Below, piece after piece: positions 3,495-63,001 of a stretch of DNA of 64,000 nt (within the stretch, counting starts at the first letter, position 1; each line of letters starts with the position of its first letter). The notes under the pieces are model-generated. The model worked only from the letters and a program-made list of their open reading frames with translations. It was not told the origin of the DNA and made no database searches. This DNA comes from Eledone cirrhosa (taxonomy: Eukaryota), in assembly GCA_964016885.1 (NCBI GenBank), contig OZ024743.1, positions 337,218,001 to 337,282,000 of the forward strand, in the 5' to 3' direction. Position numbers and translations under genes: made by a program.

Positions 3495-5220
3495 ATGGAT
3501 TCCAACAACGAAAAAAAAAAATTTGAAAAATTGCATGACAATACTAATAACACAAACAAAGACACAACAAACACAAAAATAACAGTTGAAAGTAACACCA
3601 TATCAGAAAGCAAAGCAGACGACAAGATTTCATTTGGACAGAAAACAAAGAAATCTTTGACTTATATAGCGGAAAATATTTCAGATGTGGCACGAAGGAT
3701 CACAGACGCCAAACAATACATAAGTGAAGGAGAGAATGGTATTTTATCGGTAAAAATGCCTCAAGAATTCACCAAAGACATTGAAAGCCGAACGGTCAAG
3801 TTTCGGACCATCAACAACAGTACAAAAAAACCTGAACAGCCTTCTCAAGCAGATATCAAAACAGTACTCACAGAAGTACTTAATGAAACCACTTTCATAA
3901 GAAAAGACAGACTGTATGGAAGCCTAGCAATTATCATGAAGAACGAATCGGCGGCAAAAAAAATGTGCTTTGTCACCGATTCGTTCGAAAAATTTCACCT
4001 TTTATCCATCTTATATGGGGAAAATAACTCAACGCATATGGCTGGATACAATGATGCCAGATGTGGACTACTGCTGGCTCATAGCTGGCTTCATCGATCC
4101 AGTGAATGACAACGTGATTTCCATTGGGAAAACCACAGGCAATGCGTTCAGTGGAACAGGTATAGAGCTGGTAGTGCAAATGAAGCCTGAACGCATCGCC
4201 CAAATACCCGACAGAATCCTATTAGAGGACCACGGGTATATAAACATTAGCGTGGAGGGGAGAAGGCCGTCCTGCCATATCTGTGCAGGCAGAGGGCACC
4301 TGAAGGCCGCTTGTCCCCAACTCAACAAAAAGAAAACCCTGCTACCAACATCAGCTCCACCACCACCACCACAACAGATAAACAAACAACAAAACTCAGT
4401 CCCACCCAACCCGTCCCTCAGTAAAACCACAACACCACCACAACACAAACAGTCACAACACATTACCCCAAAACAAAATACAGGCCCACCCAACCGCTCA
4501 CTCAATAAAACAACACAACCACCGCAGACACAACACACAACACAGTCTAACATAGTGACATCCATCTCCCCCACAAAGAAAACCAACACGGAAACATTAC
4601 CAGCAAACATACCTCTTCCCTCCAACACTGAAGATAACCCAACGAATTCGGAGGAAGAAACGGAGTCCTTCAGACAGATTAAAAGGAAAAAAAGAAAACA
4701 TGTGCAAAACACACAAGGACAAACAACCCCCACCCAAATCTCAACACAATCCAACAAAACAGGAAACACCCCTCCAGCAACAAACAAAACCAAACCTGCC
4801 CCTCCCTTCTTCGAAACACTCACACCATCCGAAAAAAAGACATTACACTATACTTACATCAACAGAAACAATAATAAATTAAATGAACTCATAAACAATA
4901 ATCCTTCGGTACAAACCGAAGGTGTAAACTTTGTTTCGTCAGAAAACTACCCACATTTAAAATTAATAAAGATCCCAATGAACCTCTACCAAAAAACTAA
5001 AAAAGGATTTTAAGGAGGACGTAGGACCACCCTCTGTCAAACCCATAAACCGCGTCCTACTAAAAAGCTTTCCCCCTCCCCTTCCCCTCCCCAACACAAC
5101 TCCAAACACCCCAACCCACCACACACTGACGACCCCACACCACCACAAGACACCCCTTCACCCAACACCCCCGACCCCATGGAAGTCGTGCAACCCGAAC
5201 CCCGGGAAGCGGAAAGGTAG
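3495..5220 (+). pseudogene. Tx1 copy A ORF1 (gag-like nucleic-acid-binding protein), frameshifted
   Basis: ORFs 3495-4109 and 3970-5013 plus tail ..MEVVQPEPREAER*; zinc knuckle CHICAGRGHLKAAC (CX2CX4HX4C); frameshifts lie at or near A homopolymers. Confidence 0.8.
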
Positions 5221-5253
5221 GTCTCTACACTCTCCTTTGGCTCTGCCGCCCAC

Positions 5254-8200: not shown

Positions 8201-8688
8201 GGGGGGCTCTACCCGTTCGAGAGAGGCTCTACAGACACGGGCGCCCGGGCAGGGATCCATCGAAAAAGATTTGCCCTAGATGCGTGCGTCACGAAGAAAC
8301 CGTTGCGCACGCATTGGTGCAATGTCCGGGCGTGGCTGATCTGTGGGGCTACGCCGAACGACTGCTGTCGCGGGTGGCGCCGATTCGATTGACCGCCGAG
8401 TCCGTGATGACAATCAAACCGCCTCCCCTCTTCACAAAGGAAGCAAAGGCGGTTTTTCTGTGCGTAATAGCCATGTTGAAAGAGGTTGTTTGGTGGACAC
8501 GATTGAAAGTTCTGAGGTCAGGCAACTTCCTCTCTGGTCACAGTCTGGTCTACTTCTTCCGATATCACTTCGGAAGAAGGATAAGAATGCAGAGAGAGGT
8601 GCTTGGCCACAGCCAGTTTTATGAAAGGTGGGTGATAGTGGCGAGAATGGCTCGTGTAAATGGCCCTTCTCTGTATACCATCCTGTAG
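5254..8688 (+). pseudogene. Tx1 copy A ORF2 (APE endonuclease, reverse transcriptase, C-terminal zinc finger) with one premature stop
   Basis: LNARGL, ICET, GDWN, YLDRF, TDHK (APE); KSPGLDG, NFRPITLLN, LDQSKAFDRV, SIRQGCPLS, AYADE (RT; YADD in copies B and F); CPRC..H..C. TGA at 5644-5646 where copy F has GGG; the 5254 and 5773 ORFs share a frame. Confidence 0.9.
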
Positions 8689-9142
8689 GTAAAGAAGTGA
8701 AGGAGAAGGGAGCACCTTCTCCATGTGCTCCCCGGGCAAATGATTGCACACTTTTTCGGGGGGGGGGGGGTGCAACCCCCATCACGTCCCCTCCCTTTTG
8801 AGGTTGTTTTCGATTATTTTCATTTTATACCCTTTTTACTCGATTGTATGTAAACTCCCCCTTTGTATTTGTCCCTTCTTTTTATGTCTTTATGGTAAAT
8901 AAAGAAATATATCTATCTATCTATCTATGTCTCACTCTTTCATTTACCTCCTCTCTCTGGCACTCTCTTTATTTCGATGTCATAGACTCCCCCAATCTGA
9001 TTCATTTTATCTTTCATCTCTGCCTGTCTGTAAATCTTTTGTCAGTCAGTCTGAATGTATGTCTGTCTAGCTATCAGTCTGTCTGTCTGACAGCCAGTCT
9101 GTCTATCTCTCTATCAGTCTGTCAGACTACCAGTCTATCTGT

Positions 9143-11042
9143 CACCTCATGCGATACATCATAGAGAGGGTGGGGTGTAAACCCGGCTTCGGTGGGGCTC
9201 TGATCAATTTAGATCAGTCTAAGGCATTCGATAGGGTCGACCATCGATACTTGGAAGCGGTTCTCAAGGCGGCCGATTTCGGTCCCGTTTTCAGAGGCTG
9301 GATCAAGGCGATGCCCACCAGAATCTGCTCGAGGGTCAAGGTGTACGGCTACCTATCGGAGCCATTCGCAATCACGCGTTCCATTCGACAAGGATGCCCT
9401 CTCTCCTCCATTCTGTATGTATTGACTCTAGAGCCACTACTGCGGAAGTTGGAGCTTTTGCAGGGCATCCCTTTAGAACCGGGACTGCGAAAAGCGGCGT
9501 CGGCTTATGCCGACGACGTGACGGTAATGGTGTCGAAAACCTCGGAAATCGAAGCAACCTACTACAGGAATACGAAAGGTTCACAGGAGCAAAACTGAAC
9601 CCGGACAAGTCTGTCGGTTTGCAACTTGGAACGTGGAGAGGCAAACCGATGCCGTCTGGTTCGGTCCAGACGTCCAGGTGGAGAAAAGCTAGAACGAGGT
9701 CATGGTCAAGGTATTTGCGCTCATCCAGAAGTGAACAGAGTGCAAACTATCTTTGAATGGTCAAGCGGAGGTGGCGAACACTTTCATAGCGTCCGTCATC
9801 TACTACCGCTTGACTGTCGTGCCTTGTCCCCGTGAATACCTCACCAAGATGGAACACATGCTCTTCCAGTTCCTGTGGAAGAAGCAGGCTCCGCTGGTGA
9901 GGAGATCCGTCTGCTGTCAACACCCTTCCAACGGAGGGATGGGCATGTCGTGGCTAATGATGCGCAAACATGCGCTGAGGCTACGGCATCTCCAGGTATT
10001 TCTCACAATCCAACAGGTGTGGGCACCGTTTATGAGACAGGCCTTCCCACAACTTGTCTCGCTGACGGAGCTGCAGTCCTGGGTGAAGCGAAGACCGAAG
10101 AAGATGGGCGCCTGGCACATTGCATGCGCCCAGGCGCTCACAGTCTTCTATCAAGCGGGCACAGCAATCAGTGGAGACTCCACTTCGACATTCTATAGAG
10201 GGTTAGTACTTTACAAGTGCGACGACGTGCTCGGGAAGACTCTAGGCGTCGAAGACGACGTGCTCACCAGTCTGTTCGGTAGGACTTTCCGCCCGGGACC
10301 TATGGACAACTTCCAGAGGTCCCTGGCCTGGCAGTGCTACCGGGGAGCTCTACCCGTTCGAGACAAGATCTACAGGCACGGACGCTCCGGCAGGGATCCT
10401 TCCAAGAGGACGTGTCCAAGATGCGAGCAGGACATTGAAACCGTCCTACACGCAATTGTACACTCCCCAGGCGTAAGCGACATGTGGAACTATGCAGAAC
10501 AACTGCTGTCGCATATGGGACAAATCCAGTTGACTGCCGAGTCCATAGTAAGGATCAAACCGCCAGCCTCTTTCAAAAACGAAAGAGAGACGGTTTTCCT
10601 CTGTACAGTGGCTATGGTGAAAGAGGTTATATGGTGGACAGATGCCTTTCTCTCCGGACAACAATTGATTCCCTTCTTTAAGTATCACTTTAGAAGGAGA
10701 ATCAGAGCGGAGAGGGAGGCACTGCACCCCAGTAAATTTACTGAAAGGTGGGTGAATGAAGCGAAAATGGCCCGAGTGATTGGGCCTTCTCTGTTTATAA
10801 GCCTGTAGGTTAAAGAAGAGAGCAAAAGGAAGAAGGGGGCACTTGCACAACATGCTCCTGAAGTTAAGGGTTGTTCTATCGACGGAGTATTAAACAACCC
10901 ATTTGTGCCCCCTCCCCTATTGGGGATTTCGATTGTTATAATTGTTTGTTTCAATATTTTTACACGACTGTATGTAAAATCCCCGGCATGTATCTTTGTA
11001 TTGTCCCCTTTTCTTGTGCACCCTTGTGGCAAATAAAGAAAT
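9143..11042 (+). mobile_element. 5'-truncated Tx1 copy B (RT to 3' UTR), degenerate
   Basis: Begins at HLMRYIIERVG; QGCPLS and YADD present; ORFs 9149-9598 and 9753-10808; ends AATAAAGAAAT followed by (TATC)n. Confidence 0.9.
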
Positions 11043-11050
11043 ATATCTTT

Positions 11051-11091
<41 letters not shown>

Positions 11092-14000
11092 ATAGTATAG
11101 ACGCTTGCAACATCGGCTCCTGCCTTTTTGAATTTTTTACCTATTAACAGTAAGTGTTTGTTTTTATTGTGTTGTCTTCGTGTATTTTAACCTCCTGGCT
11201 AGGTCTGTAGACGGGTGGTCATCGTATTTTTACCCCTTTTGGGGGTAAAAACTATTCCTAAAAAGTTTTTGTTGACTCGCATGTCAAAAATGGACGCCAT
11301 ATCTGTATCACATTTGAAGGAAAATGCTACGCCCACTAAGGAAGAGAAGAGAAAGAAGCAAGCGGTACATAACGCTTTGCTTTCCCCCCTCAACTTTTTA
11401 AAAGACTCTGAAAACGGCGATATGCCCAACAAACATGTAAATACGGGTGTAAACCCAATTAGTTACACCAAAATTAACAACGAAAACACTAACAATGACA
11501 ACACCAACACACCAAATGAGGAAAACAACAGCAACAAAAATGAAAATAACTCCAACTCCAACACTGAAAAAATTGAAAACTACAATGAGAAACAGAACAA
11601 CTCAAACACCAACAACGATAAAAAAAGTATCCTTTGAACAGACTGCTAAAAAGTCCGTCACTTATATGCTTGAAGATATATCAAACGCAAGAGAAATGCT
11701 GGAAAAAGCAAAACAATAAGTATCTTTTGGCGGAAATGGATATTTTTTCATCAATTCGTCCCCAGAACTTAAAAAACAGACTCAATTAAGAACTGTTGTA
11801 TTCCGTACAATTGCAAACAAAACCAAAAAACCATCACAACCATCTCAATCTGAGATTCAGTTGGTCCTAAAAGAGGCCATGAAGGACATATTATTTATAC
11901 AAAAGGATAAACTCTATTGGAGTTTATCCATATTGATGAAAGACGAATTGGCGGCGAAAAAATACTCTGTGTTGCCAATTCGTTCCACGAACTACACCTT
12001 TTTCCCAACCTACATGTGTATAAAAACACAAAGAATTTGGATCAACACAATCATCCCGAACATTGAATACTGAGGTTACTAACCGGTTTCCTCAACTTAG
12101 ACGAGGACAATTTAATCTCAGTAGGGAAGGCATCCGGCGACGCGTACAATGGAACGGGCATCGAAATTTTGACCTAAATAAGGCCGGAACGTATCGCCCA
12201 AATCCCTGAACGCGTCATGCTGGATGACCGTAACTACCTCAGATCATTGTGGAGGGTAAGCGACCATCCTGTTACCTCTGTGGTGACAGAGGTCACCTGA
12301 GGGCTAACACCTAAAAAAACCTTTGCTACAAACACCACAACAACAAAAACAACCAACACCACCACCACAAAAACAACTAAATACACCACCACCACCACAA
12401 CGACAACAAAAACCAAAAACACCACCTCCGCCGCCACAACAACAACAAAAACGTGAAAAAACAACACAGAACACTGTCCCACCCAACCCCTCCCCACCCA
12501 AAACAAATACAAAAACACACACACCGCAAACACTACCGGAAAATATACCCCTCCCACTCAATACCGGAGACAATCCCCTTTCGTCGCAAGACGAAGGAGA
12601 CCCTTTCCAAGTAGTAAAAAGAAAGAAGAGGAGGCGCACCACAGACACACTTATTAAAATATGAGAAAACAAACTATATACAAAACACCCCTCCCCATTA
12701 CACAACATTAACTGCAACGCAAAAAAAAGACTTTACAATATACATACATGAACACAAGCAACAAAGAATTAATGAAAACAATTTTTGAAAACCCTTCGGT
12801 CCAAACCGATGGGCCTAATTTTGTGACTGCTGTGGGACTACCACATTTAAAAATGGTTAAAGTCCCAATGAACTTATTTAAAACATTAAAAATCAATTTC
12901 ACGGAGGACGTGTCCGTCTCCCCTGCACCAAGCCAATCAACCACGTCCTCCTAAAAAATTTCCCCACCTCCTACACAGACACCCACTCAACTACAAACAC
13001 CCCAACCCCACAACATACTGCTGCTCCTACACTTCCACAAACCACCACCCCACCCAGCAACCCCTCCCCCACTCGCATGGAAATTGTGCAGCCCGGTCCC
13101 CGGGACGCAGAGAGGTAAGTGCCTTTTCTCTTTACCACCAACATGGCTGTGCTGAGAGTAGGTTGTCTAAATGCGCATGGCCTGGGCTCACCTTGTAAGC
13201 AAGCAATGATTCTAAATGACCTCAGGTCACGATGTATAAATGTGATGGTTATTTGTGAGGCCCGGATCAGCAGCGTGCGACAGCTGGCCCCCACCTTTGT
13301 GGACTTTGAGATGCACGCATCTCTCTGTCTCTATGGACGTCCCGCTCCTTGCTTTTAGTGGGGGACTGGAATGTTATCCTAGATGCACGATGGGACTATG
13401 TAGGGGCATGTCCCGATAGAGGGGGTTGTAACAGCCTCAAGGGGTTAATCGGCCGATTTGACCTGGCCGATAGATATCGACTAGATTTTCCGACTGTGCC
13501 AACCTGGACTTGGACAAACCATAGCGGTCAATCTAGATCGTACCTAGATAGGTTCTTAGTTAGAAATAAGGATAGGGACTTTTTAAGTTGTCCAGAAATG
13601 CTCATGGTTGGCTATTCAGACCACAAGTTAGTGACCTGCATAGTCAACTTTGATAGAACGCATATACTGGGACCCGGTTACTGGAAGCTCAACTTGTCCT
13701 TACCGGCAAGTAAAGCTTACAGGGACCGGATTAGTACTTTAGTTAAGGAGCGGTTGACGAGCGCCATCCTCAACAGCAGGTGGTGGGGCTCTCTCAAAAG
13801 AGAGATTAGAGTAGTTTCAATAAGAGTTAGTAAGGAGTTAGCCTCAGATAGAAATAGGAAGGAAAGGGAGTTGGTAGATAGTGTAGAAGAGGCAATTAGA
13901 AGCGGCGACGTAGCCAGAGTGCTAGCGTCGAGAACGGCCTTGGGCCAGTTCTTCGACGCGAAACACGAAGGCTGCGTTGTCCGAAGCAAAATACGTGCTC

Positions 14001-15490
14001 TGGAAAACGAGGGGACCAAAGCTGTTAGCTGGGCCCGCGTGACAGAAGCGAAAAGTGGGATTAGATCCACTATCCGGGCTTTGCGAGACCAGGATGGACG
14101 GGTGTTCCTTGAACCTAAGCAAATGTGTGTGGCTTTCAAAGGCACTTTGCCCGATTGTTCGAAATGGGCGAGGGGCCGGATGGGGATGTGGACTTCGGTC
14201 CATACCTCGACGGCCTGCCGCGTCTTTCGGACGAGGAGGCGAAGTCCTGCGTCCGTCATCTATTACCGCCTGATCGTCGTGCCTTGCCCAAGGGAAACGC
14301 TCACCAAAATGGAGCGCGCACTCTTCCAATTTCTTTGGAAGAAGCGGGCTCCTTTGTTGAGGAGATCCATCTGCTGTCAACACCCTTCGAAAAGAGGGCT
14401 GGGGAGGCCGTGGCTGCTGATGCGTAAACACGCATTAAGGCTACGGCACCTCCAGGTATTCCTCACCGGTCAACCGGTGTGGGCCCCGTTTGTGAGGCGA
14501 GCCTTTCTGAGACTCGTCTCGTTCACCGAGCTGCAGTCCTGGGTCAAGCAAAGACCGAGAAAACTAGGCGCCTGGCACACCGAGTGTGCCCAGGCGCTCA
14601 CGGCTCTCTGGCAGGTGGACCCGGCTATCGGTGGAGACTCCACCTCGTCATTCTATAGAGGGCTGGTGGTTAGCAGGTGCGACGACGCCCTCGGAGAAAC
14701 CCTAGGCGTGGAAGAAGACGAACTGGCCAGCCTATTCAGTAGGGCATTTGGCCCGGGACCTATGGACAACTTCCGGAGGTCCCTGGCCTGGCAGTGCTAC
14801 CGAGGGGCTCTGCCCGTTCGAGAAAAGCTCTACAGACACGGGCGCCCGGGTAGGGACCCCTCGAAAAAGATCTGTCCCAGATGCGTGCGCTACGAGAAAA
14901 CCGTTGCGCACGTATTGGTACACTGCTCGGGCGTTGCCGATCTGTGGGGCTATGTCGAACGACTGCTGTGACGGGTGGGACCAATCCGGTTGACGACCGA
15001 GTCCATTGTAACGATCAAGCCGCCTCCCCCCTTCAAAAATGAAGGAGAGGCGGTCTTCCTCTGTGTAATAGCCATGGTGAAAGAATAGGTATGGTGGACA
15101 CGTTTGAAAGGGCTGAGGTCGGACACCTTTCTCTCCGGCCAACAACTGATCCTTTTCTTTAAATACCATTTTAAGAGAAGGATCAGAATGGAGAGAGAGG
15201 TGCTCTACCCCAGCAAGTTTTATGAAAGGTGGGTGAAAGTAGCGAGAATGGCCCGTGTGAATGGGCCTTCTCTCTTTATCAGCCTGTAGGTGGAAATGTG
15301 CTCCTAAGGAAAAGGGTTGTACACTTCTTGGGGGTGTGTGCGACCCCCAAAACGCCTCCTCCCTATTGAGGACTGTATTGTTAATTTTATATTTGTTATT
15401 TGTTTTTACTCGTTCTTTTATGTACCCCCCCCCCCCTCACTTGTATTTGTCTCCTTCTTTTGTGCCCTCGTGGCTAATAAATAGAAACTT
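11092..15490 (+). mobile_element. Tx1 copy C, both ends present but RT domain deleted
   Basis: 5' end ATAGTATAGACG resembles copies E-G; decayed ORF1 (~11281-13118); ORF2 from 13143 with deletions at ~13330 and ~14250; ends AATAAATAGAAACTT-(ATCT)n. Confidence 0.9.
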
Positions 15491-15502
15491 ATCTATCTAT
15501 CT

Positions 15503-41460: not shown

Positions 41461-41644
41461 TGTCTGTCTTTGATAGTAGACGTCTTGCACATCGGCTCTT
41501 CGATTTGGAATTTTTACTTGGAATATTTGTGAGTGCATTATTTAAATTGTTTTTTATTATTGACTCTAACCCCTAGTCTGGGACTGTAGACGCAGGGTAA
41601 ATATATTTTCACCCCGTTTGGGGTGAAAAATATTTAATTCAAAA

Positions 41645-43399
41645 ATGTTTATCGATACCGTTGAAAACGATATCGCCATATTGGAAGCTAACGCCACGCC
41701 TACCAAAAAAATAATCGTGAAAGAGGGAACAACAATTCAAACTGTTGAACAGCCCCTCCTCTCCAATGAAAAAAAAAAGAATATTAATTCGAATGAAAAC
41801 CTAAATTTTGAAGAAAAAAATACCACAAATAATGAAACCAACAACATTACAACAACAAGCAACAAAGACAACAAAATTTCTTTTGCCCAAACGGTCAGGA
41901 AAGCTATTGAATACAAGCCCATAGATATTACTAACGCTAAACAAAACTTGCTAGATGCCAGAAAATACGTATCTTTTGGGGAGGATGGTTCTTTTACGAT
42001 CAACTCCCCAGAAGAAGTTCGTCAACAGGTATATAGGAATACGATAACCTACAGGACTATATCCAATGCAACAAGAAAGCCAGCTCAATTGACAGAAAGT
42101 CAAATTGAGCTGGTTCTGAAAGACATTAAAAAGGACATACTCTTTATTGAAAGAGGAAGGCTGTATGCCAGCATTATAATCCGAATGAAGGACGAAATGC
42201 TGGCTCAAAAATGTTCGGTGGCACCTATAGTGTCACCACAATACACCTTCTTCCCCACATATAAAGGAAGAAGAACACAAAGAATAAGAATGTGGAGCCC
42301 AACGCCAGAAGTTAACATCTGGTCCGTCCTGACAGGATTTACGGACCTAGAAAAGGATATCCTTATTTCAGCAGGGGAGTCTACCAGTGGACTGTTCGGG
42401 GGGGGGGGGAAGTCTGGAGGTTCTCTTACAGATGACACCTGAGAGAATCGCCGGAATACGCGACCGAGTCCTACTGGATGGGCGAACCTTCATAAATATT
42501 ACGGTGGAAAGCAGGAGACCCTCATGTTACCACTGCGCTGGCAGAGATCACCTGAGGACGGCCTGCCCTCTACTAATAACAAAAAACCACTACTACAAAC
42601 ACCACAACAACAACAAAACCAACCAGCACCACCACCACAAAAACAACAAAATACACTACCATCACCACCACAACGACAACAAAAACCAACAACACCACCT
42701 CCTCCACCACCACCACAACAACAACATCAACAACAGCTCAAGAAAACAACCCAAAACACGGTCCCACCCAGCCCCTCCCCACAGAACACATACAAAAACA
42801 CACACTTCATACACAACCCGGAAATATACCCCTCCCCTCCAATACGAAAGGGGAGCTCATATCGTCGGAAGACGAGGGGGCTCCCTTCCAAAAAGTGAAA
42901 AGAAAAAAAGTACACACACCACACAAACAAAAATAACCCCACCTGACAACACAACACAAACAACAAAACGCAAACTCACGCAAGAACAACAAGCAAAAAC
43001 AAACACAACAACACAAAAACTCTACACATACATAAACAAAAACAATAAAGACTTAACGGAAAAAATAGAAAACAACCCTTCGGTACAAACCGAAGGGCCG
43101 AATTTTGCAACGGCAATGGGACTCCCTAACCTGAAAATGGTGAAAGTCCCACTTGACATTTTCAAGACTTTGAAAAACATTTACCCTGAGGACGTGGGGC
43201 CACCCTGCACCAGGCCACTCAACCGCGTCCTCCTGAAAGGTTTTCCCCTCCTCTCCTCAAACACCCACACAACTCCAAACACCCCAACCCCTCCACACAC
43301 TAATACCCCCACACCACCACAAACCACCACCCACCCATCAACCCCTCCACCAGCCCCATGGAAACTGAGCGGCCCGAACCCCGGGACGCAGAGAGGTAA
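41645..43399 (+). pseudogene. Tx1 copy F ORF1
   Basis: ORFs 41645-42442 and 42387-43487 (part); knuckle CYHCAGRDHLRTAC; ends ..METERPEPRDAER*. Confidence 0.8.
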
Positions 43400-43422
43400 G
43401 TGCCTCTTTCTTTGCCACCAAC

Positions 43423-46400
43423 ATGGCTGTGTTAAGAGTATGTTGTCTAAATGCGCATGGCCTGGGCTCACCTTGGAAGCAAACTAAACTTCTAAATGAC
43501 CTCAGGTCACAATGTATAAATGTGATGGTTATTTGCGAGGCCCGGATCAGCAGCGTGTGACAGCTAGCCCCCACCTTTGATGACTTTGAGATGCACGCAT
43601 CTCTCTGTCAGCCCGGAGGTGGGGGTGGGGTTGTCGTTCTGCTGCAAAAGCATCTGGGTCTCGCTACACAGACGGTACACTTGGACCCGGAGGGTCGACT
43701 CGTGGTTCTGGACCTTGGCAATGGTGAAGGCGAAGCTTTTAGGCTTGTCGCCGTATATGCCCCTTTTGGGGCAATGCGGTCGGACTTCTTCCATCGTTTG
43801 GAGACTTTTCTAGGGACGTCCCGCTCCTTGCTTTTAGTGGGGGACTGGAATGGTATCCTAGATGCACGTTGGGACTATGTAGGGGCATGTCCCGATAGAG
43901 GGGGGTGTAACAGCCTCAAGGGGTTAATCAGCTGATTTGACCTGGTCGATAGATACGGACTAGATTTTCCGACTGTGCCAACCTGGACTTGGACAAACCA
44001 TAGCGGTCAATCTAGATCGTACCTAGATAGGTTCTTAGTTAGAATTAAGGATAGGGACTTTTTAAGTTGTCCAGAAATGCTCATGGTGGGCTATTCAGAC
44101 CACAAGTTAGTGACCTGCGTAGTCCACCTTGATAGAACGCATAGGCAGGGACCCGGTTACTGGAAGCTCAACTTGTCCTTACCGGCAAGTAGAGCTTACA
44201 GGGACCGGATTAGAACCTTAGTTAAGGAGCGGTTGACGGGCGCCATCGTCAACAGCAGGTGGTGGGGCTCTCTAAAAAGAGAGATTAGAGTAGTTTCAAT
44301 AGGAGTTAGTAAGGAGTTAGCCTCAGATAGAAATAGGAAGGAAAGGGAGTTGGTAGTTAATGTTGAAGAGGCAATGAGAAGCGGCAACGTGGCCAGAGTG
44401 CAAGCGTCGAGAACGGCCTTGAACTAGTTCTTCGACGCGAAACACGAAGGCTGCGTTGTCCGAAGCAAAATACGTGCTCTGGGAAACGAGGGGACCAAAG
44501 TTGTTAGCTGGGCCCGCTTGACAGAAGCGAAAAGTGGGATTAAATCCACTATCCGGTCTTTGCGAGACCAGGATGGAGGGGTGATCCTTGAACCTAAGCA
44601 AATGTGCGAGGCCTTTCAAAGGCACTTTGCCCGATTGTTCGGGAGGGGCGGGGCGCCGGTTGGAGATGTGGATTTCGGTCCATACCTCGACGGGCCGATC
44701 TCAGCTGCTGAAATAAGGGACGTGCTGAGCCTATGCGGCAAACGCAAATCTCCAGGGCTCGATGGTCTGCCCTACGAACTATATATTAATATGCCGGACT
44801 TGTTCCCCGATCTCCACGAGGCGGTCTACTGCAACTGGCAACAGAACGGGAGAATTTCCTGTTCTGTGACCAAGGGCGTAGTCTCGCTAGTGAGGAAGGA
44901 CGAGAACAAGGGGGATGACATTAGTAATTTTAGGCCCATAGCTCTGCTAAATGCAGTGTTAAAGATTTTGGCCAAGGTGTTAGCGAAGAGGTTGGTGCTT
45001 GTCGTGGGGAGCCTGGTGGGAGATGCGCAGACATGCTCTATCCCCTCCAGGTCCATCCACGACAACCTCCACCTCATGCGATACATCATAGAGAGGGTTG
45101 GGAACGAACCCGGCTTTGGTGGGGCTCTGATAAATTTAGATCAGTCTAAAGCGTTCGATAGGGTTGTCCATGGTTACCTGGATGCGGTGCTAGCGGCGGC
45201 TGGGTTCGGACCCGTTTTCAGGGGCTGGATCACTGCCATGCACAGCAGCCGCATCTGCTCTAGAGTTAAGGTGAACGGCTACCTTTCGGAACCGTTCGAA
45301 ATCACCCGCTCCATCCGACAGGGGTGCCCTCTCTCCTCCCTTCTGTATGTATTGGCTCTCGAGCCACTACTGCGGAAGTTGGAGTTGTTGCAGGGCATCC
45401 CTTTGGAACCGGGATTGCGCAAAGCAGTGTCGGCCTACGCCGATGACGTAATAGTAATGGTGTCGACCATCTCGGAAATCGAGGCAATCGGCACCTTACT
45501 TGAGGAGTACGAAGGGTTGACAGGGGCTAAGCTGAACCGGGACAAGTCAGTCGCTTTGCAACTCGGCGAGTGGAGGGGCAAAGCGATGTCGTGCCACGGT
45601 ATCGTCGGACGGTGGACGGAGGGCCCGGTGAAGTTGCTTGGGGTCTGGTTCGGACCGGATCTCCAGGTGGAGAAAAACTGGGGTGAGGTGACGAATAGGG
45701 TGTTTGCACTGACCCAGAAGTGGGCCGAGTGCAAACTATCCCTGAAAGGTATGGCGTAGGTGGCGAATGATCACATAGCGTCCGTCATCTATTACCGCTT
45801 GACTGTCATGCCTTGCCCGGGTGAGATCCTCGCCAAAATGGAGCGCGCCCTCTTTTATTTCCTTTGGAAGAAGAGGTCTCCTCTGGTGAGGAGATCCATC
45901 TGCTGTCAACACCCTTTGAAAGGAGGGCTGGGGATGCCGTGGCTAAAAATGCGTAAACACGCATTGAGGCTAAGGCACCTCCAGGTATTCCTCACCGGTC
46001 AACCGGTGTGGGCCCCGTTCGTGAGGCGAGCCTTCCCGAGGCTCGTCTCGCTCACCGAGCTGTAGTCCTGGGTGAAGCAAAGACCGAGAAAACTGGGCGA
46101 CTGGCACACCGAGTGTGCCCAAGCGCTCACGGCTCTCTGGCAGGCAGACCCAGCTATCGACAGAGACTCCACCTCGTCATACTATAGAGGGCTGGTGGTT
46201 AGCGGGTGCGACGACGCCCTCGGAGAAACCCTAGGCATGGAGGAGGACGAACTGGCCAGTCTATTCGGTAGGACTTTCGGCCCGGGACCTATGAACAACT
46301 TCCAGAAGTCCTTGGCCTGGCAATGCTACCGAGGGGCTCTGCCCGTTCGGGATAAGCTCTACAGACACGGGCGCCCGGGTAGGGACGCCTCGAAAAAGAT

Positions 46401-46818
46401 CTGTCCCAGATGCGTGCGCGACGAGGAAACCGTCGCGCACGCATTGGTGCACTGCCCGGGCGTTGCCGATCTGTGGGGCTATGTCGAACAACTGCTGTCA
46501 CGGGTGGGACCAATTAGGTTGACCACCGAGTCCATTGTAACGATCAAGCCGCCTCCCCCCTTCAAAAATGAAGGAGAGGCGGTCTTCCTCTGTGTAATAG
46601 CCATGGTAAAAGAGGTTATATGGTGGACGCGTCTGAAAGGGCTGAGGTCGGACACCTTTCTCTCCGGCCAACAACTGGTCCTTTTCTTCCGATACCATTT
46701 CGGAAGAAGGATTAGGATGGAGAGAGAGGTGCTCCACTCCAGCCAGTTTTATGAAAGGTGAGTGAAAGTTGCGAGAATGGCCCGTGTGAATGGGCGTTCT
46801 CTCTATATCAGCCTGTAG
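43423..46818 (+). pseudogene. Tx1 copy F ORF2 (APE-RT-CCHC), with several premature stops
   Basis: Fragments 43591-43935, 43975-44427, 44518-45759 (QGCPLS, YADD), 45760-46065 and 46072-46761. Confidence 0.9.
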
Positions 46819-47044
46819 GTGGAACAGGAAGAAGGGAGCACCCTCTGTTTGTGCTCCCGTGGAGAAGGGTCGCACATTTTTTCGGGGGTGTGTGTGACCC
46901 CAAAACGATCCCTCCCTATTGAGGACCTTCTTGTTACTATTTTGTTTGTTATATTTTTCTTACTCGATGTTTATGTAAACTCCCCCCACCGATGTACATG
47001 TCCCTTTCTTTTGTGCCCTAGTGGCAAATAAACAGAAATTTGTC

Positions 47045-47520
47045 TTTGATAGTAGACGTCTTGCAGATCGGCTCTTCGATTTGGAATTTTTACTTGGATT
47101 ATTTGTGAGTGTATTATTTAAATTGTTTTTTATTATTGACTCTAACCCCTAGTCTGGGACTGTAGACGTAGGGTAAATATATTTTCACCCCGTTTGGGGT
47201 GAAAAATATTTAATTCAAAATGTTCATCGATATCGTGGAAAACGAGGAAGCCATATTGGAAGCTAACGCCACGCCTACCAAAAAAAGCGAGAAAGAGGGA
47301 ACAACAATTCAAACTGTTGAACAGCCCCTCCTCTCGAATGAAAAAAAAGAATATTAATTCGAGTGAAAACCTAAATTCTGAAGAAAAAAATAACAAGAAA
47401 ATAAACACCACAAAAGGTGAAACCAACAATTAAATTTTTCTTACTCGTTCTATATGTAACCCCCCCCCCCCATGTACATGTCCCTTTCTTTTGTGCCCTA
47501 GTGGCAAATAAACAGAAATT
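47045..47520 (+). mobile_element. Internally deleted Tx1 copy G (5' ~390 bp plus 3' ~85 bp)
   Basis: Same termini as E and F; jumps from early ORF1 to the end of the 3' UTR at ~47433; followed by (TGTC)n. Confidence 0.9.
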
Positions 47521-49280: not shown

Positions 49281-50864
<1,584 letters not shown>

Positions 50865-50867
<3 letters not shown>

Positions 50868-52274
50868 GCTATACGGACCCCCCAAAACACTGATCAGGTA
50901 AGAAAAATGGTCGCACATGCAATAGGGGCTAGTATCAAAACTACCCTAAAGGGCCACATATTTAAGTTCAATGAGAAAATCTACACCCAAAATGAGGGAG
51001 CAGCCATCGGCGTCAGCATAGCTGGCGATGTTGCCAACCTTTTCATGGTATGGTGGGAAAGGAGACTTAAAGATCTCCTTAATGAAAGCTCCATAGACCT
51101 CATCATGTACTCTCGTTATGTAGACGATATCAATATATTTATAAGAACACCCCCACTAGAGAGCACTAACAAGTTTGATTTAGAACGTAGCACGATGGAA
51201 AGCATCCAGCAGAGAGCTAATTCCATACACCAGAGTATAACTGTAACTATAGACTTCCCTTCCAAACACCCTAACAATAGACTACCTGTATTAGACACAG
51301 AACTCTGGATCAACACTATAGACGAGAGAGCCCAAATTCTCCACTCACACTATGCTAAACCCATGGCCTCCAAATACCTGATACTCAAAAACTCAGCAAT
51401 GTCCAGTAGTGCTAAGTTTAATATTCTGATCGCAGATTTGGTACGAGTGATGAAGAATGTGTCCAGCATGTGCGACCCAACAGAAATGGAAGGACACATC
51501 CAACACTTCATCAACCGCATGCAGTTCTCTGGCTACAACCAAAGAGACAGAGTCAGAGTATACGAAGGAGCCATGGAAAAGTATAAGACCCTCATAGAAC
51601 TGGACATGAAAGGAATTTGCCCACTATACAGGAGCAAATCATGGAATAGCTTAGATAGGGCTAGACATAAGATAGGGAAGGCCACATCATGGTACGACAA
51701 CCAGAGATATCAGAGTGTCATGTTTGTGGACGCCACCCCTGGAGGGAAATTAGCTAACCAGTGTAGAAAGGCCCTGAGAAAGACCCACTTAAAAATAAAG
51801 GTGGTAGAAAAGCCAGGAACCACCATAAAATCCCTGATCAGCAAAACCTACCCTTTTAAGAAAACCCACTGTACCAATAGGAAATGTATCATATGTAAGG
51901 TGAACCCCCGGATAAACTGTAAAACTAGAAACGTAGTCTATAGCATAAGATGTACAGAGGGTACTTGCAGAAACACGACAACAACATACATAGGTGAGAC
52001 AGCTCGTAGCATAGGTGAAAGGATAGACCAACACTGGGGGGAACTAAAAGGACGAAAAAACGGGTCAGTACTATATGAACATGCTAGACAACATCATGAC
52101 GGTAACATAGACAACATAGAAATTAGAATAATATCTAAACATAGGAATGACCCAGCAGATAGGCAAATCAGAGAGGCCAGTGAAATAGAAATTAGAAGAC
52201 CAAAGCTAAACAGAAAGAATGAGTGGAACAACAACAACACCCAAACAAACAACACTGACCTAAGAGAAGTATAA
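50865..52274 (+). CDS. Partial PLE reverse transcriptase-GIY-YIG endonuclease polyprotein (open to its stop, 5' truncated)
   Basis: QNEGAAIGVSIAGDVANLFM, RYVDD, LPVLDTELW, YAKPMAS, FSGY, CTNRKCIIC, NVVYSIRC..C, YIGETARS..ER..QH, HARQHH, REASEI. Confidence 0.85.
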
Positions 52275-52540
52275 ATAAATAAGTAAATTAAATTAAATAA
52301 AATAAGATAAATAAATACATACACAAGCACATAAACACACACTAGTCACCCAGCAGACACAACACTATACACACTAGTCACACATCACACATAACACTAT
52401 ACACACACGCAAACGCATGCGCAAAGAAGACAAAATAAAATAAGATAAACAAACAAGCAAATAAATAAATAAATATATAGACAGACTGAACAAAAAAAAT
52501 GGCGTAGACATACAACACAACAGGAGGAACAATGAATATA

Positions 52541-52590
52541 ACACCACTGACGATGTTGCAGATGTGCAACGAAAGATTTATGTAAACTAT
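52541..52590 (+). ncRNA. Hammerhead-like motif in the Naiad-like 3' UTR (second copy at 61941-61990)
   Basis: CTGACGA-T-GTTGCA-GATG-TGCAAC-GAAAG-ATTTATGTAAA-CTA; stem II is perfect but the stem I partner is not evident; copy 2 has GAAC. Confidence 0.5.
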
Positions 52591-52849
52591 ATATATATGT
52601 GTTTGTCTATATTGTATCTGTATTATTTTTGACCGCCGGTCAGTCAATGGCAACATTGAGGACCGAGTAAGTTAGATCGCAGATATATATATATAAAAGA
52701 CAGCGAGAAGCGAAAACCAACCAAACAGTGAGTGTGTTCTGTTATTAATTCTGGCAATATTACGCAAATATGACCCTCCCCAAATATAACAATATCTGTT
52801 TCGACACACGATTTCATATAAAAAACCTCGCAAAACTAATTCATCGCCG

Positions 52850-52896
<47 letters not shown>

Positions 52897-54718: not shown

Positions 54719-55175
54719 GTATAGGATTATCCGAGATGTAGTAATGGTTAATTACTACACTGGATATGCTTGACGTACGGTGAGAGGTTACTCTACGAGT
54801 TATGGAAGAATTGTTGAAGAAACTTAGTTCCTGATCCTTCTGTATTCCGGAGTGTATATAAACAATGAATAATAACAGGTAGACATCATAAAAAGGTAAT
54901 TTATTCCGTGTGCTTACAAATGTTTCCACGGTGGTACTACAGCCTAGTTATGCTATGAGCAAATTTGCAACTATTTGCAGAACTCAAATATCCAATGCTG
55001 TGACCACTGTATCCTCTGAGGATACAGTGGTCACAGCATTGGATATTTGAGTTCTGCAAATAGTTGTAAATTTGCACATAGCATAACTAGGCTGTAGTAC
55101 CACCGTGGAAACATTTGTAAGCACACGGAATAAATTACCTTTTTATGATGTCTACCTGTTATTATTCATTCTTTA
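54715..55175. mobile_element. PLE pLTR-like remnant with near-perfect palindrome 54864-55170 (153-bp arms, axis 55017) and a long-stem-II hammerhead
   Basis: ..GTATCCTC-T-GAGGATAC..; right arm CTGAGGA-TACAGTGGT..(~67 nt)..ACCACCGTG-GAAAC-ATTT-GTA-AGC. Confidence 0.75.
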
Positions 55176-55185
55176 TATATATATT

Positions 55186-55385
<200 letters not shown>

Positions 55386-55479
55386 ACGAAGGAAATGTGG
55401 TAAGGAACCAGGTGGACCATAACGCACCAAAGTACTCAATACTTAGGGTAGTAGAGTGCGTAATAGGAACAAGTAAGAC

Positions 55480-55482
<3 letters not shown>
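55386..55482 (-). mobile_element. 97-bp solo 3' tail of the 49411-50867 PLE family, in (TA)n
   Basis: Near-identical to 49411-49507. Confidence 0.9.
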
Positions 55483-55542
<60 letters not shown>

Positions 55543-55547
<5 letters not shown>

Positions 55548-57151
55548 AATTTATATCTAGTAACATTTATATACACACAGATGCATATCAATGCTAGCAA
55601 ATATATAGGTTTTGTCTTATTAACAATGTGGTTCAACGCATGGGGTTGCAGAACAATAATATGAGAGACATAAAATAAGAAAATTATAAAATTAACTTAC
55701 TTACTAAAAAATCACTTCCAACTAATTAGTTTCTGGAATGGAGTAAATATATTTTCCGAAGAAACTTATAGAAAATCATTCCGTCATCAGGAAAGTCTTT
55801 TTCCGTATAGGTCTCCAGGCATAGCGAGGACACTGGAAACTTATTAAAAAAAATAATTCAGTGGAATGGAAATAGCGATGCGTGGACTGGATTCCAAGCC
55901 ATTGAGAAAATCACTGCCTCCACGTCCGTGGCAAATTCAAAAAGAATCAATCACGTGACATCGAGGTCAATCAGTGGAAAGCGAGTGGTTATTAAGACAG
56001 CGGCCAGCTTACTACCATAGTAGCAGTCATGGCCAAATATTGCTCGACAAATGAATTGGAGATAATTATAAGGAATTTATATCTAGTAACATTTATATAC
56101 ACACAGATGCATATCAATGCTAGCAAATATATAGGTTTTGTCTTATTAACAATGTGGTTCAATGCATGGGGTTGCAGAACAATAATATGAGAGACGTAAA
56201 ATAAGAAAATTATAAAATTAACTTACTTACTAAAAAATCACTTCCAACTAATTAGTTTCTGGAATGGAGTAAATATATTTTCCGAAGAAACTTATAGAAA
56301 ATCATTCCGTCATCAGGAAAGTCTTTTTCCGTATAGGTCTCCAGGCATAGCGAGGACACTGGAAACTTATTAAAAAAAAATAATTCAGTGGAATGGAAAT
56401 AGCGATGCGTGGACTGGATTCCAAGCCATTGAGAAAATCACTGCCTCCACGTCCGTGGCAAATTCAAAAAGAATCAATCACGTGATATCGAGGTCAATCA
56501 GTGGAAAGCGAGTGGTTATTAAGACAACGGCCAGCTTACTACCATAGTAGCAGTCATGGCCAAATATTGCTCGACAAATGAATTGGAGATAATTATAAGG
56601 AATTTATATCTAGTAACATTTATATACACACAGATGCATATCAATGCTAGCAAATATATAGGTTTTGTCTTATTAACAATGTGGTTCAATGCATGGGGTT
56701 GCAGAACAATAATATGAGAGACGTAAAATAAGAAAATTATAAAATTAACTTACTTACTAAAAAATCACTTCCAACTAATTAGTTTCTGGAATGGAGTAAA
56801 TATATTTTCCGAAGAAACTTATAGAAAATCATTCCGTCATCAGGAAAGTCTTTTTCCGTATAGGTCTCCAGGCATAGCAAGGACACTGGAAACTTATTAA
56901 AAAAAATAATTCAGTGGAATGGAAATAGCGATGCGTGGACTGGATTCCAAGCCATTGAGAAAATCACTGCCTCCACGTCCGTGGCAAATTCAAAAAGAAT
57001 CAATCACGTGACATCGAGGTCAATCAGTGGAAAGCGAGTGGTTATTAAGACAGCGGCCAGCTTACTACCATATTTACTCCATTCCAGAAACTAATTAATT
57101 GGAAGTGATTTTTTAGTAAGTAAGTTAATTTTATAATTTTCTTATTTTACG

Positions 57152-57158
<7 letters not shown>
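55543..57158 (-). repeat. Tandem array of a 526/527-bp unit (~2.9 copies) plus an inverted ~88-bp piece of the same unit, flanked by (TA)n
   Basis: Unit starts at 55545, 56071 and 56598; 57070-57158 is the reverse complement of part of the unit; each unit has minus-strand CTGATGA-CGGA..TTCG-GAAAA-TATA-TTT. Confidence 0.9.
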
Positions 57159-58700
<1,542 letters not shown>

Positions 58701-58789: not shown

Positions 58790-59129
58790 CATAATATAAG
58801 ATCAAAAGATGGTTAAAGGAGTTCAATATATTTTATTATGCGCATTTCAAAAACAAACATCATCAAACAATAATATTTGTGTTTTCATCAGATAAAACAG
58901 GAGAACATGATATGAAGGCTAAAAAAACACTTGTTGATAGTGCAGTTTTAAATCAACATATGTTGATTTAAAACTGCACTATCAACAAGTGTTTTTTTAG
59001 CCTTCATATCATGTTCTCCTGTTTTATCTGATGAAAACACAAATATTATTGTTTGATGATGTTTGTTTTTGAAATGCGCATAATAAAATATATTGAACTC
59101 CTTTAACCATCTTTTGATCTTATATTATG
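58790..59129. repeat. Perfect 340-bp palindrome (170-bp arms, axis 58959/58960) carrying a hammerhead in each arm
   Basis: ..AAATCAACAT|ATGTTGATTT..; the + arm continues as unique sequence to ~59214, then (TA)n. Confidence 0.92.
59022..59088 (+). ncRNA. Type I hammerhead ribozyme (mirror copy on the minus strand, 58831-58897)
   Basis: TTTTAT-CTGATGA-AAACACAAATATTATT-GTTT-GATGATGTTTGTTTTT-GAAAT-GCGC-ATA-ATAAAA; all three stems pair and stem III is palindromic (ATGCGCAT). Confidence 0.8.
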
Positions 59130-59405: not shown

Positions 59406-62181
59406 ACAACAAATAGATGACGAGAAAGAGGCAGAGTTCACCATAGCTAGAAATAAGATTAGACAAATAGTAGACAGATATACTAAGAGACAGAGCAGAC
59501 CAGAGGCCCAACAACTTGGGAGGAAACGTGTAGAAGGCTTGGTTAGCCTCAAGCAGCGCACAAGGGATGGTGAGGTAGTATGTCTACCCACGGATAAGTC
59601 TGGTAGGATTTCAATAGATAGCATGCCGAACTACATCAAGGCTATGCAACCCCACATCACCAACACGAGCGAAATTGCACAACAAACACACGATGGGAGA
59701 GAGAAAATCCTCAACGCTCACATGATAATGTAGACCGACAGACGCATGATAATGTAGCCAAGCAGACGCACTGCCAACAACTTCCAGGCGTCTAACAATG
59801 GCATACCACCCTTGTATGGGCTCCGCAAAGACCACAAGACAGTCGACGATCCGACAACAGGACCACCAACAAGACCCGTATGCGGAGCTAATATAGCTAG
59901 TAACTACAGGATCTCCTACTTCCTCTCAGTGGTTATACGCCCCATAATCAAGATGTCCCCAGATGTATGTGACAGTACAGAGGACCTCCTCAGCAGAATC
60001 AGTGAGTGCAACAAAAACAGGAACCTATCCAACTGCATAATAAGCAGCATGGATGTGGTGTCACTGTACCCATCCATTAACATTGATTTTACTGTGAAAA
60101 GATGTGTGGAGATGATCATTGAGAGTGAGGTGGAGTTCTGCGACGTCGACACAGACGAACTGGGCCTCCTACTTAGACTTACCTACGACACTGACTACCT
60201 AGACAGCCATGACCTTAGACGTTTCTGCCCTAGTAGACCTATAAGAGGTAGACCCCCCACCATAACCTCAATGGCAAAAAAGACTAACATGGGAAGGTGG
60301 ATTGGGTGGACCAAAGCTATACGGACCCCCCAAAAAAATGATCAGGTAAGAAAAATGGTCGCACATGCAATAGGGGCTAGTATCAAAACTACCCTAAAGG
60401 GCCACATATTTAAGTTCAACGAGAAGATCTACACCCAAAATGAGGGAGCAGCCATTGGCGTCAGCATAGCTGGTGATGTTACCAACCTTTTCATGGTATG
60501 GTGGGAAAGGAGACTTAAAGATCTCCTTAATGAGAGCTCCATAGACCTCATCATGTACTCTCGTTATGTAGACGATATCAATATAGTTATAAGAACATCC
60601 CACTAGAGAGCACTAACAAGTTTGATTTAGAACGTAGCACAATGGAAAGCATCCAGCAGATAGCTAATTCCATACACCAGATTATAACTGTAACTATCGA
60701 CTTCCCTTCCAAACACCCTAACAATAGACTACCTGTATTAGACACAGAACTCTGGATTAACACTATAGACGAGAGAGCCCAAATTCTCCACTCACACTAT
60801 GCTAAACCCATGGCCTCCAAATACCTGATACTCAAAAACTCAGCAATGTCCAGTAGTGCTAAGTTTAATATTCTGATCGCAGATTTGGTACGAGTGATGA
60901 AGAATGTGTCCCGCATGTGCGACCCAACAGAAATGGAAAGACACATCCAACACTTCATCAACCGCATGCAGTTCTCTGGCTACAACCAAAGAGACAGAGT
61001 CAGAGTATACGAAGGAGCCATGGAGAAGTATAAGACCCTCATAGAACTGGACATGAAAGGAATTTGCCCATTATACAGGAGCAAATCATGGAATAGCTTA
61101 GATAGGGCTAGACATAAGATAGGGAAAGCCACCCCATGGTACGACAACCAGAGATACCAGAGTGTCATCTTTGTGGACACTACCCCTGGAGGGAAATTAG
61201 CTAACCAGTGTAGAAATGCCCTGAGAAAGACCCACTTAAAGATTAAGGTGGTAGAAAAGCCAGGAACCACCATAAAATCCCTGATCAGCAAAACCTACCC
61301 TTTTAAGAAAACCCACTGTACCAATAGGAAATGTATCATATGTAAGGTAAACCCCCGGATAAACTGTAAAACTAGAAACGTAGTCTATAGCATAAGATGT
61401 ACAGAGGGTACTTGCAGAAACATGACAACAACATACATAGGCGAGACAGCTTGTAGCATAGGTGAAAGGATAGACCAACACTGGGGGGAACTAAAAGGAC
61501 GAAAAATACGTACATGCTAGACAACAACATGACGGTAACATAGACAACATAGAAATTAGAATAATATCTAAACATAGAAATGACCCAGCAGATAGGCAAA
61601 TCAGAGAGGCCAGTGAAATAGAAATTAGAAGACCAAGACTAAACAGAAAGAATGAATGGAATAACAACAACACCCAAACAAACAACACTGACCTAAGAGA
61701 AGTATAAATAAGTAAATAAAATAAAATAAATAAATAAATACATACACAAGCACAATAACAACAAGCACATAAACACACACTAGTCACCCACCACACAGCA
61801 AACAAAACACTATACACACACGCAAACGCATGCGCAAAGAAGACAAAATAAAATAAACAAACAAGCAAATAAATAAATAAATATATAGACAGACTGAATA
61901 AAAATGGCGTAGACATACAATACAACAGGAGGAAAAGATAGCACCACTGACGATGTTGCAGATGTGCAACGAACGATTTATGATAAACTATATACATGTG
62001 TTTGTGTCTATATTGTATCTGTATTATTTTTGACCGTCGGTCAGTCAATGGCAACATTGAGGACCGAGTAAGTTAGATTACCGATATAAAAGACACAGAA
62101 GCAAGAAGCGAAAACCAACCAAACAGTGAGTGTGTTCTGTTATTAATTCTGGCAATATTACGCAAATATGACCCTCCCCAA
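59403..62181 (+). mobile_element. Penelope-like element (Naiad-like), copy 2: longer but disrupted
   Basis: [43 protein letters not shown]; stop at 59731, frameshifts near 60600 and 61505; (TA)n on both sides. Clade call is from recalled motifs (DKS in place of DKG; C..C/H..H in the endonuclease), not a phylogeny. Confidence 0.88.
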
Positions 62182-62182
62182 G

Positions 62183-62272
<90 letters not shown>

Positions 62273-63001
62273 TATGGGAGGAGGTTATAGTTCACTTGAA
62301 GCATTGTGTAATGAGGTATAAACGTTAGAATATGTGTAATAAGGCCAAGACAATGCAGATATGGACATAGAAAAAGAATGCAATAGTGAGAGATATTGAT
62401 GAGAATTCGTCTTTCACCTTGAATTTATTTAAATGTCCTTAATTTTCGAGATAATATCTCTTCTTCGGAGGGAAGTAAAAGTCTCAGACCAGCGTCTAAA
62501 TTTCCAATGAAGCCATGCTGACCGGAAATAGTATAGAGTTCTAACTTTAATATCAAAGAATTAAAATTAGGTGGGTAAAGAGTAGTCTCCCTTTAAGAGG
62601 GGTTTGTTTATGTTTTTGTTGTGTTTTTTAAATTTTATATGCGTGCCTGTATATGTGTGTGGGAGAAAGCATGAAGGTGTAGGTATGTGTGTGTGTGAGT
62701 GTGGGAAGATAGGTCTAATCGTAAAAGTGGGGGGTAGGTGTTATCTGGTGTTAGAACTGGTTTTGTGTGTGTATGTGTGAGAGAGAATAAGTGGAGGTGT
62801 GTGCGTGCGTGTGTGTGGGGTGTGTAAAGTGTGGCTAGAGGCCCTATCAGGTTATAAATTGGGTGTTGAGCTCTAGTCTATTATTGATTGGTGGATGTGT
62901 TCTATCTATAATGAGTGCTTCCTTGATTCTAAGATTACCGAGGTTTCTTTCTTTAGTTTCTATCCTAACTGTTATGTTTTTATCAGTGTTTTTGCATTTA
63001 T

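Follow-up and report, generated by a model that had tools for sequence, protein, structure and literature searches.

Copies of a Penelope-like element in Eledone cirrhosa that begin at a predicted hammerhead cleavage site

A 97-bp insertion in the genome of Eledone cirrhosa appears to be the reverse-transcribed 3' fragment of a Penelope-like element (PLE) RNA that was cleaved in the germ line, after GUC, by the hammerhead ribozyme in its own pLTR; we put the probability of this reading at about 0.86. The insertion lies in a window of 64,000 nucleotides, the whole stretch of DNA that was analysed (assembly GCA_964016885.1, contig OZ024743.1, positions 337,218,001 to 337,282,000 of the forward strand). 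The first-pass annotation of this window had proposed a cDNA of the ribozyme's 3' product, and three genome-wide observations agree with it: a peak of 5' breakpoints at the predicted cut, breaks of both arms of head-to-head copies at the same position, and tails inserted at the cut site. Cutting in vivo is what we infer from these DNA junctions.

The insertion, its element and the ribozyme

The solo copy occupies positions 55386..55482 on the minus strand and comprises pLTR bases +1 to +97, numbered from the predicted hammerhead cut (+1 is window position 49507). It is identical at 92 of 97 bases to positions 49507-49411 (minus strand) of a longer copy in the window. Its 5' end is the G directly after the GTC (49508) of the longer copy, and its 3' end falls on the same base in both. 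The annotation had placed the 5' end of the insertion exactly at a predicted hammerhead cleavage site, with the 3' end shared and (TA)n on both sides, and the window coordinates bear this out. It had also delimited the longer copy as 49595 to 49411 on the minus strand; the 3' end at 49411 stands, and the other boundary moves from 49595 to 50823. At its 3' end the solo copy adjoins the target array, (TA)106 at 55174..55385. At its 5' junction stands (TA)31 (55483..55544), an array that also borders a neighbouring 526-bp tandem element on the 3' side of the latter. The flanks being (TA)n, no target-site duplication is readable around the solo copy. Only the 3' strand of stem I is retained, and, judged as a retrozyme, the insertion is a single 97-bp piece without a core instead of two tandem units.

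The nearest relative of the solo copy that has a full core differs at 1 of 97 bases and carries the core UUGAUAA, as do all full-core copies that share the solo copy's marker (17 of 17). By sequence, its donor likely had this core, that of a sister subfamily, and not UUGAGAA. The annotation had named the UUGAGAA ribozyme as the one that cut in vivo; junctions and tails at the bond point to cutting there, and the part that gives way is the core variant, since the donor was likely UUGAUAA.

The longer copy (49411..50823, minus strand) belongs to the same PLE family and is 5'-truncated. It includes the end of the GIY-YIG endonuclease ORF, about 1.3 kb of 3' UTR and the pLTR, and ends in (TA)n at 49410. 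At other loci its sequence runs on into a GIY-YIG and reverse transcriptase (RT) reading frame, and motifs of both domains were identified by eye in three loci (L193, L194 and L196). Locus L193 has the layout pLTR-ORF-3'UTR-pLTR with a unit of 3,542 bp. Pfam and PDB searches with the element ORF gave no match; its motifs are DKT, a CxCX5C linker, CxxC/CxH near the conserved E and N, and RW(R), L194 having RWR where RWK is expected. A 19-base 3' anchor has 27,163 exact matches in the 3.0-Gb genome. An inverted arm was flagged in 57 of 100 unselected copies, the insertion target is (TA)n, and the copies have two 3' ends, +97 and +20. The second of these, at +18 to +20 (49488..49490, minus strand), is the end of inverted arms and of 17-20-bp mini-copies and may mark a second start of reverse transcription. 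A single RT and GIY-YIG ORF between two pLTRs, the inverted arm and an optional tail make this an EN+ Penelope-like element with Hydra-clade motifs, and as such an ordinary member of a known clade. An assignment to Neptune was rejected, the motif set fitting the Hydra clade as described in PMC8557442.

Our own descriptor scan and fold place a type I hammerhead at 49503..49596 on the minus strand; an Rfam search did not detect it there. Stem I pairs 49596-49592 with 49507-49503 (5 bp), loop II has about 37 nt, stem II is closed by G-C, the GAAA stands at 49530-49527, and stem III (49527-49509) is a near-palindrome of 6 bp followed by the cut after 49508. The core TTGAGAA (UUGAGAA; 49585..49591, minus strand) is a variant of the form U3-U4-G5-A6-N7-A8-A9. 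N7 is G, U or A depending on the subfamily and one subfamily has C3; the register is fixed because position 7 varies among subfamilies. The canonical fold has -20.0 kcal/mol against -22.8 for the minimum free energy structure. Across 8 copies the stems are 94% paired, and the GUC triplet and U3-A8 core are present. These copies are too alike for stem covariation, with no two-sided change and one G-C/G-U change. By fold and core, the longer copy holds a genuine type I hammerhead. Hammerhead cleavage leaves one product with a 3' end at C-1 and another with a 5' end at G+1. The predicted bond here, GUC^G, lies at 49507..49508 (minus strand), and it is there that the genome-wide peak of 5' junctions, the double-arm breaks and the tail inserts fall.

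Several other features lie nearby. Three tandem 526-bp units, each with a type I hammerhead of CUGAUGA core, occupy 55545-57160 (minus strand); the array is retrozyme-like, ends in (TA)n and has an inverted 5' piece at 57070-57161. At 50739-52850 and 59758-62275 (plus strand) are two copies, 91% alike, of another PLE family that has RT and GIY-YIG frames, the former standing head-to-head with the longer copy through a 45-bp inverted repeat (50823-50867). Further CUGAUGA hammerhead-like motifs found by descriptor are located at 59028-59082 (plus), 58891-58837 (minus) and 53224-53176 (minus), and the first two form an inverted pair flanking a perfect hairpin (58910-59009). Elsewhere the window contains a 25-kb satellite (15793-40649) with 52/56/108-bp units from TCTG/TCTA repeats, and decayed non-LTR retrotransposon copies with gag-like, endonuclease and RT frames at 41627-47045 and 4845-15500 (plus).

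Junctions and tails at the predicted cut

The 5' breakpoints were counted with an exact whole-genome pattern in which six A/T bases directly precede the element sequence, taken from position k onward. There are 54 such junctions at +1, compared with 8 at +2, 8 at +3, 9 at +4, 17 at -3 and 11 at -1 and -2 together (this total counted by eye among 45 matches). The count at +1 exceeds the mean of 8.8 at six neighbouring positions with a Poisson p of ~1e-24, and the highest neighbour with p 7e-13. The solo copy of the window is absent from the 54 matches; it has a private change in its anchor. In the first 30 of these 54 junctions, 19 join (TA)n directly, 7 have other AT-rich flanks and 4 are tail inserts. 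The histogram of breakpoints relative to GUC, proposed as a check by the annotation, thus has a sharp single-base peak at GUC^. The annotation had also allowed for a single event and a possible coincidence; instead the junction is recurrent.

A pattern independent of the flank gave 608 matches at +1/-1 against 116 at -3/-4. In the first 30 of the 608, 24 are true junctions, and the other 6 are intact copies in which an additional G or point changes satisfied the pattern. From 608 matches against 19,743 anchor copies and the pass rate of the pattern, the share of copies that break at the cut is about 2-4%, and the pattern estimate of 2.5-4% agrees with 2-3 of 100 unselected copies. The short 3' product alone, as the annotation had proposed, would thus seem to be a retrotransposition substrate, since +1 junctions recur, and by a minor route. 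The smallest of these copies, 17-20-bp mini-copies at L031, L032 and L039, run from +1 to the second 3' end and lie between (TA)n arrays. A cluster at +7..+10 (96 junctions over 3-4 positions) is taller than that at +1; it is attributable to TA microhomology at those positions, and GGGG at +1 has none with (TA)n. At the cut, microhomology explains neither the direct nor the tailed class of junctions. A stricter pattern, TATATA followed by GGGG, was dropped as too narrow (11 matches, including 1 unrelated and 3 mini-copies), and GGGGG variants were put aside as run-length changes. CpG decay of C-1 as the source of a T before GGGG was rejected as well, being too rare (1 of ~22 intact copies by eye).

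Might the solo copy be an ordinary truncation, or the remnant of a later DNA deletion (through (TA)n expansion or insertion of the neighbour), that met the cut site by chance? At a background of about 9 junctions per position, part of the +1 copies would be accidental, and the solo copy is itself ambiguous in that its 5'-side (TA)n is common to the neighbouring insertion and its (TA)n flanks hold no readable target-site duplication. However, the excess over background at +1 makes up 45 of all 54 junctions and, within the solo copy's marker group, 35 of 38 (~83-92%). Chance may fit one copy but not the genome-wide signal, and for the solo copy we regard it as improbable.

Many copies stand head-to-head, and 383 such joints are close to the cut. 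The first 30 comprise 14 in which both arms begin at +1 with untemplated filler between them, 3 blunt joints and 13 others; the blunt CCCC|GGGG joints are explicable by CG microhomology. L304 (G000:C7:18516100-18516650) has the same 5-base insert at the cut in both arms of one insertion. This shared insert implies either a single template for the two arms or the copying of one arm from the other, and two arms may therefore represent one event. For the neighbouring hammerhead family, that of the 526-bp tandem units, a single head-to-head joint was seen close to the predicted cut (L260), and it is exactly on it; of 5 direct (TA) junctions in this family 1 coincides with the cut, and as a replication these numbers are underpowered.

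The tails at the cut are the strongest line of evidence for cleavage. Copies with an insertion in -10..+6 (a window of 16 junctions) were screened and scored by eye. Among the first 100 of 131 such copies, 12 have an A/T-rich insert that is not a duplication exactly between GTC and GGG, and 1 has a non-duplication insert elsewhere in the window; a downstream control window gave 0-1 of 81 by eye. In a supplementary pattern, the first 30 of 60 matches are, apart from tails, mostly point changes or small deletions. Sixteen distinct tailed copies examined in full have an A/U-rich or poly(A) insert exactly at the cut, among them a run of 28 A (L267), mixed U-then-A runs and A runs broken by G. Fifteen of the 16 extend at least 109 nt upstream and so hold a complete ribozyme; among the 70 unselected copies whose start lies upstream of -23, the figure is 10 (Fisher p 2e-9). 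Other copies record related events: in L308 and L309, +1 is joined to poly(A) of another context, and L282, L285 and L312 end at GTC and pass into (TA)n within a few bases. In L309 (G000:C1282:10650-11150) the sequence joined to +1 is a mixed poly(A) run and, beyond it, the element's own ORF, prematurely ended; RT seems to have jumped there to a truncated transcript with a poly(A) tail.

Tails and peak together also bear on the idea that RT merely stalls on uncut RNA, either at the foot of the hairpin or dimer duplex that stem III forms or where the G run ends, with no chemistry involved. Such a stall is conceivable in that stem III is near-palindromic, forms a stable dimer (-26.3 kcal/mol) and has a 3' strand reaching to -2, and in that copies with a C3·A8 core likewise show peak and tails. 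It predicts ends at -1/-2, however, where there are 11 junctions together, and not the 54 at +1. It also leaves unexplained the poly(A) and oligo(U) tails that start exactly after C-1, as well as their near restriction to copies with the whole ribozyme, although every copy spanning the site has stem III. We therefore think a stall very unlikely.

The C3·A8 cores were tried as a dead-ribozyme control. From the C3-G8 tests cited in PMC11167929, as far as that paper's account of them goes, such a core would be expected to be weak, with poor pairing; a literature search for G8A/C3U rescue data found nothing relevant. At first the comparison seemed to favour such a control (p 0.0002 for 38 vs 18 against 16 vs 35), and per anchor the counts are 38 of 10,600 and 16 of 9,143 (p 0.014). 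Both versions were rejected because C3·A8 copies are tailed in proportion: the core occurs in 3 of 15 tailed copies having a core (e.g. L303, L306 and L307) and in 18 among the first 100 of 3,940 full-core copies (Fisher p 1.0). The C3·A8 marker group also peaks at +1, more weakly but really (p 0.0015; 16 junctions vs 5.8 per position). In this group the broken copies bear the 3' end typical of C3·A8 copies. The difference in rate may track the share of full-ribozyme templates. Either the C3·A8 core retains activity, or its cleavage occurs in trans via the palindromic stem III, or the signal is partly non-catalytic, and given this parity of tails no natural dead-core control backs the chemistry.

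The same indifference to C3 or U3 would suit a protein nuclease or a second transcription start that makes the end at +1, the hammerhead being incidental or presenting the bond, and the part of PMC11167929 on the Anolis PLE describes hammerhead cleavage only with protein present; a start site, however, gives no 3' end at C-1, where 16 copies end before their tail, the Anolis cleavage is described there as requiring the ribozyme core and not the endonuclease, and the bond used is the one that hammerhead rules predict, which makes this the least probable of the alternatives, slightly below a stall.

Most copies start elsewhere, and a possible route to the cut copies

The first 100 anchor matches on contig C1 served as an unselected sample. 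Of these copies, 58 have their 5' end at -45..-26 and 10 reach beyond -100, with none between -46 and -102; another 10 start within -25..-2, 2 start at -1/+1, and the remaining 20 start downstream of +1. One divergent copy, L050, was scored +14 by script and by eye starts at +1, which raises the -1/+1 class to 3 of 100; one of the two script-scored copies is compatible with microhomology. Over half of the sample begins at -45..-34 (49541..49552, minus strand), in a pile-up that breaks off sharply at -45. Close to -40..-45, about 680 direct junctions were counted on one strand, more than at +1 (the variable-gap TA patterns overcount plus-strand copies, and minus-strand totals alone were used). 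The edge (window 49552, minus strand) sits on an A in what we take to be an initiator-like context, inside loop II of the hammerhead. It is the probable transcription start of the pLTR. An internal promoter with Inr and DPE is described for Penelope of D. virilis in the relevant part of PMC2377424. Most short copies would then be run-offs from the capped end of uncut RNA that has no 5' half of the ribozyme.

The solo copy and its relatives could arise as follows. The element protein would nick (TA)n and start reverse transcription internally, at +97 or +20. The majority of templates would be uncut RNA that begins at about -45 inside the ribozyme and is missing its 5' half, giving the common -45..-34 copies. 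Read-through RNA that spans the downstream pLTR would carry a whole ribozyme and would occasionally be cut. On the 3' product the enzyme would run off at +1, add 0-3 untemplated bases and be joined to the target, as in the solo copy, or to a second arm. Tailing of the 5' product with oligo(U)/oligo(A) or poly(A) may occasionally follow, and RT may jump from +1 to this tailed end, leaving a healed copy with the tail frozen at the cut. Template jumping has a precedent in R2. For the present element both steps, the tailing and the jump from end to end, are proposals, and ligation at the RNA level is an alternative to them. Cutting likely lowers full-length transposition and does not enable it, because it parts the ORF-bearing RNA from the priming sites.

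We tentatively extend this to a fate switch, which we hold somewhat less likely to be right than wrong. The promoter inside the ribozyme would leave the RNA's 5' end unable to cut, and the whole ribozyme downstream would cut read-through RNA. The cell would then tail the new 3' end with U and A, and the RNA, stripped of its start sites, would become mRNA or a substrate for decay, while RT would at times jump and write the tails into the genome; C3·A8 RNAs would be cut by trans dimers or with protein help. If so, one could tell from genome assemblies in general which of the PLE ribozymes are active in vivo.

Comparison with known systems

PLE hammerheads, U3-A8 cores, inverted arms and (TA)n targeting are already known. 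The element resembles the Hydra clade, as the pertinent sections of Craig et al. 2021 (PMC8557442) define it, in its RT and C-terminal GIY-YIG ORF, the motifs DKT, CxCX5C, CxxC/CxH and RW(R), the pLTR hammerhead, (TA)n, and inverted arms plus tail. It differs in a unit of 3.5 kb, against "generally <3 kb", and in its tens of thousands of copies, and its placement is by motifs, without a tree. The same sections call the function of hammerheads in EN+ PLEs unclear. The ribozyme shares with the PLE hammerheads described by Cervera & De la Pena 2014 (PMC4209133, in its part on these motifs) the type I form, a 5-bp stem I, a long stem II with G10.1-C11.1 and a palindromic stem III; U3-A8 core covariation was described there in Schistosoma PLE hammerheads. 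Compared with them, stem III has 6 bp and loop II about 37 nt here.

Activity of PLE hammerheads in vivo is described as unshown in three papers, PMC11167929 and PMC4209133 among them. Our literature search returned no earlier report of a junction peak or cut-site tails for PLE hammerheads, and relevant papers or supplements may contain some, or may document activity of C3·A8 cores. One genome here provides base-exact, countable evidence for both ends of the cut, with tails on the 5' product preserved; genomic junctions indicate the 3' product as an integration substrate, and template jumping by a PLE reverse transcriptase is suggested. Because an assembly is all that it requires, the analysis is open to repetition with any PLE family; it also singles out an RNA, a bond and core variants. 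Poseidon PAc of Anolis, in the results of Frangieh et al. 2024 (PMC11167929) that concern templates and targets, likewise has two internal starts of reverse transcription, which match the tail, and AT-rich targets, and uncut RNA as the dominant substrate, as we propose. In contrast to the RNA-seq data described there, with no reads starting or stopping at the cut, about 2-4% of the genomic copies here begin at it, in addition to the tails.

Non-LTR retrozymes (PMC7229834; bioRxiv 10.64898/2026.07.22.740005) are, in the descriptions drawn on here, similarly short and non-autonomous, with type I hammerheads, and probably moved by PLE proteins. According to the description in PMC7229834, however, retrozymes are tandem units each with a whole ribozyme, whereas the solo copy cannot propagate as a ribozyme unit. 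The closest precedents for the argument are the HDV-like ribozyme of R2 (PMC3774820) and the twister ribozyme of Perere-3 (PMC8501958), for which the passages concerned report that genomic 5' junctions and untemplated bases record cleavage in vivo, with a putative jump mentioned for R2 (PMC3774820). In those accounts the ribozyme stands at the element's 5' end, where it generates the full-length template. The hammerhead here, unlike theirs, stands just upstream of the priming sites, and its cut would yield only dead copies of 17-97 bp and healed copies.
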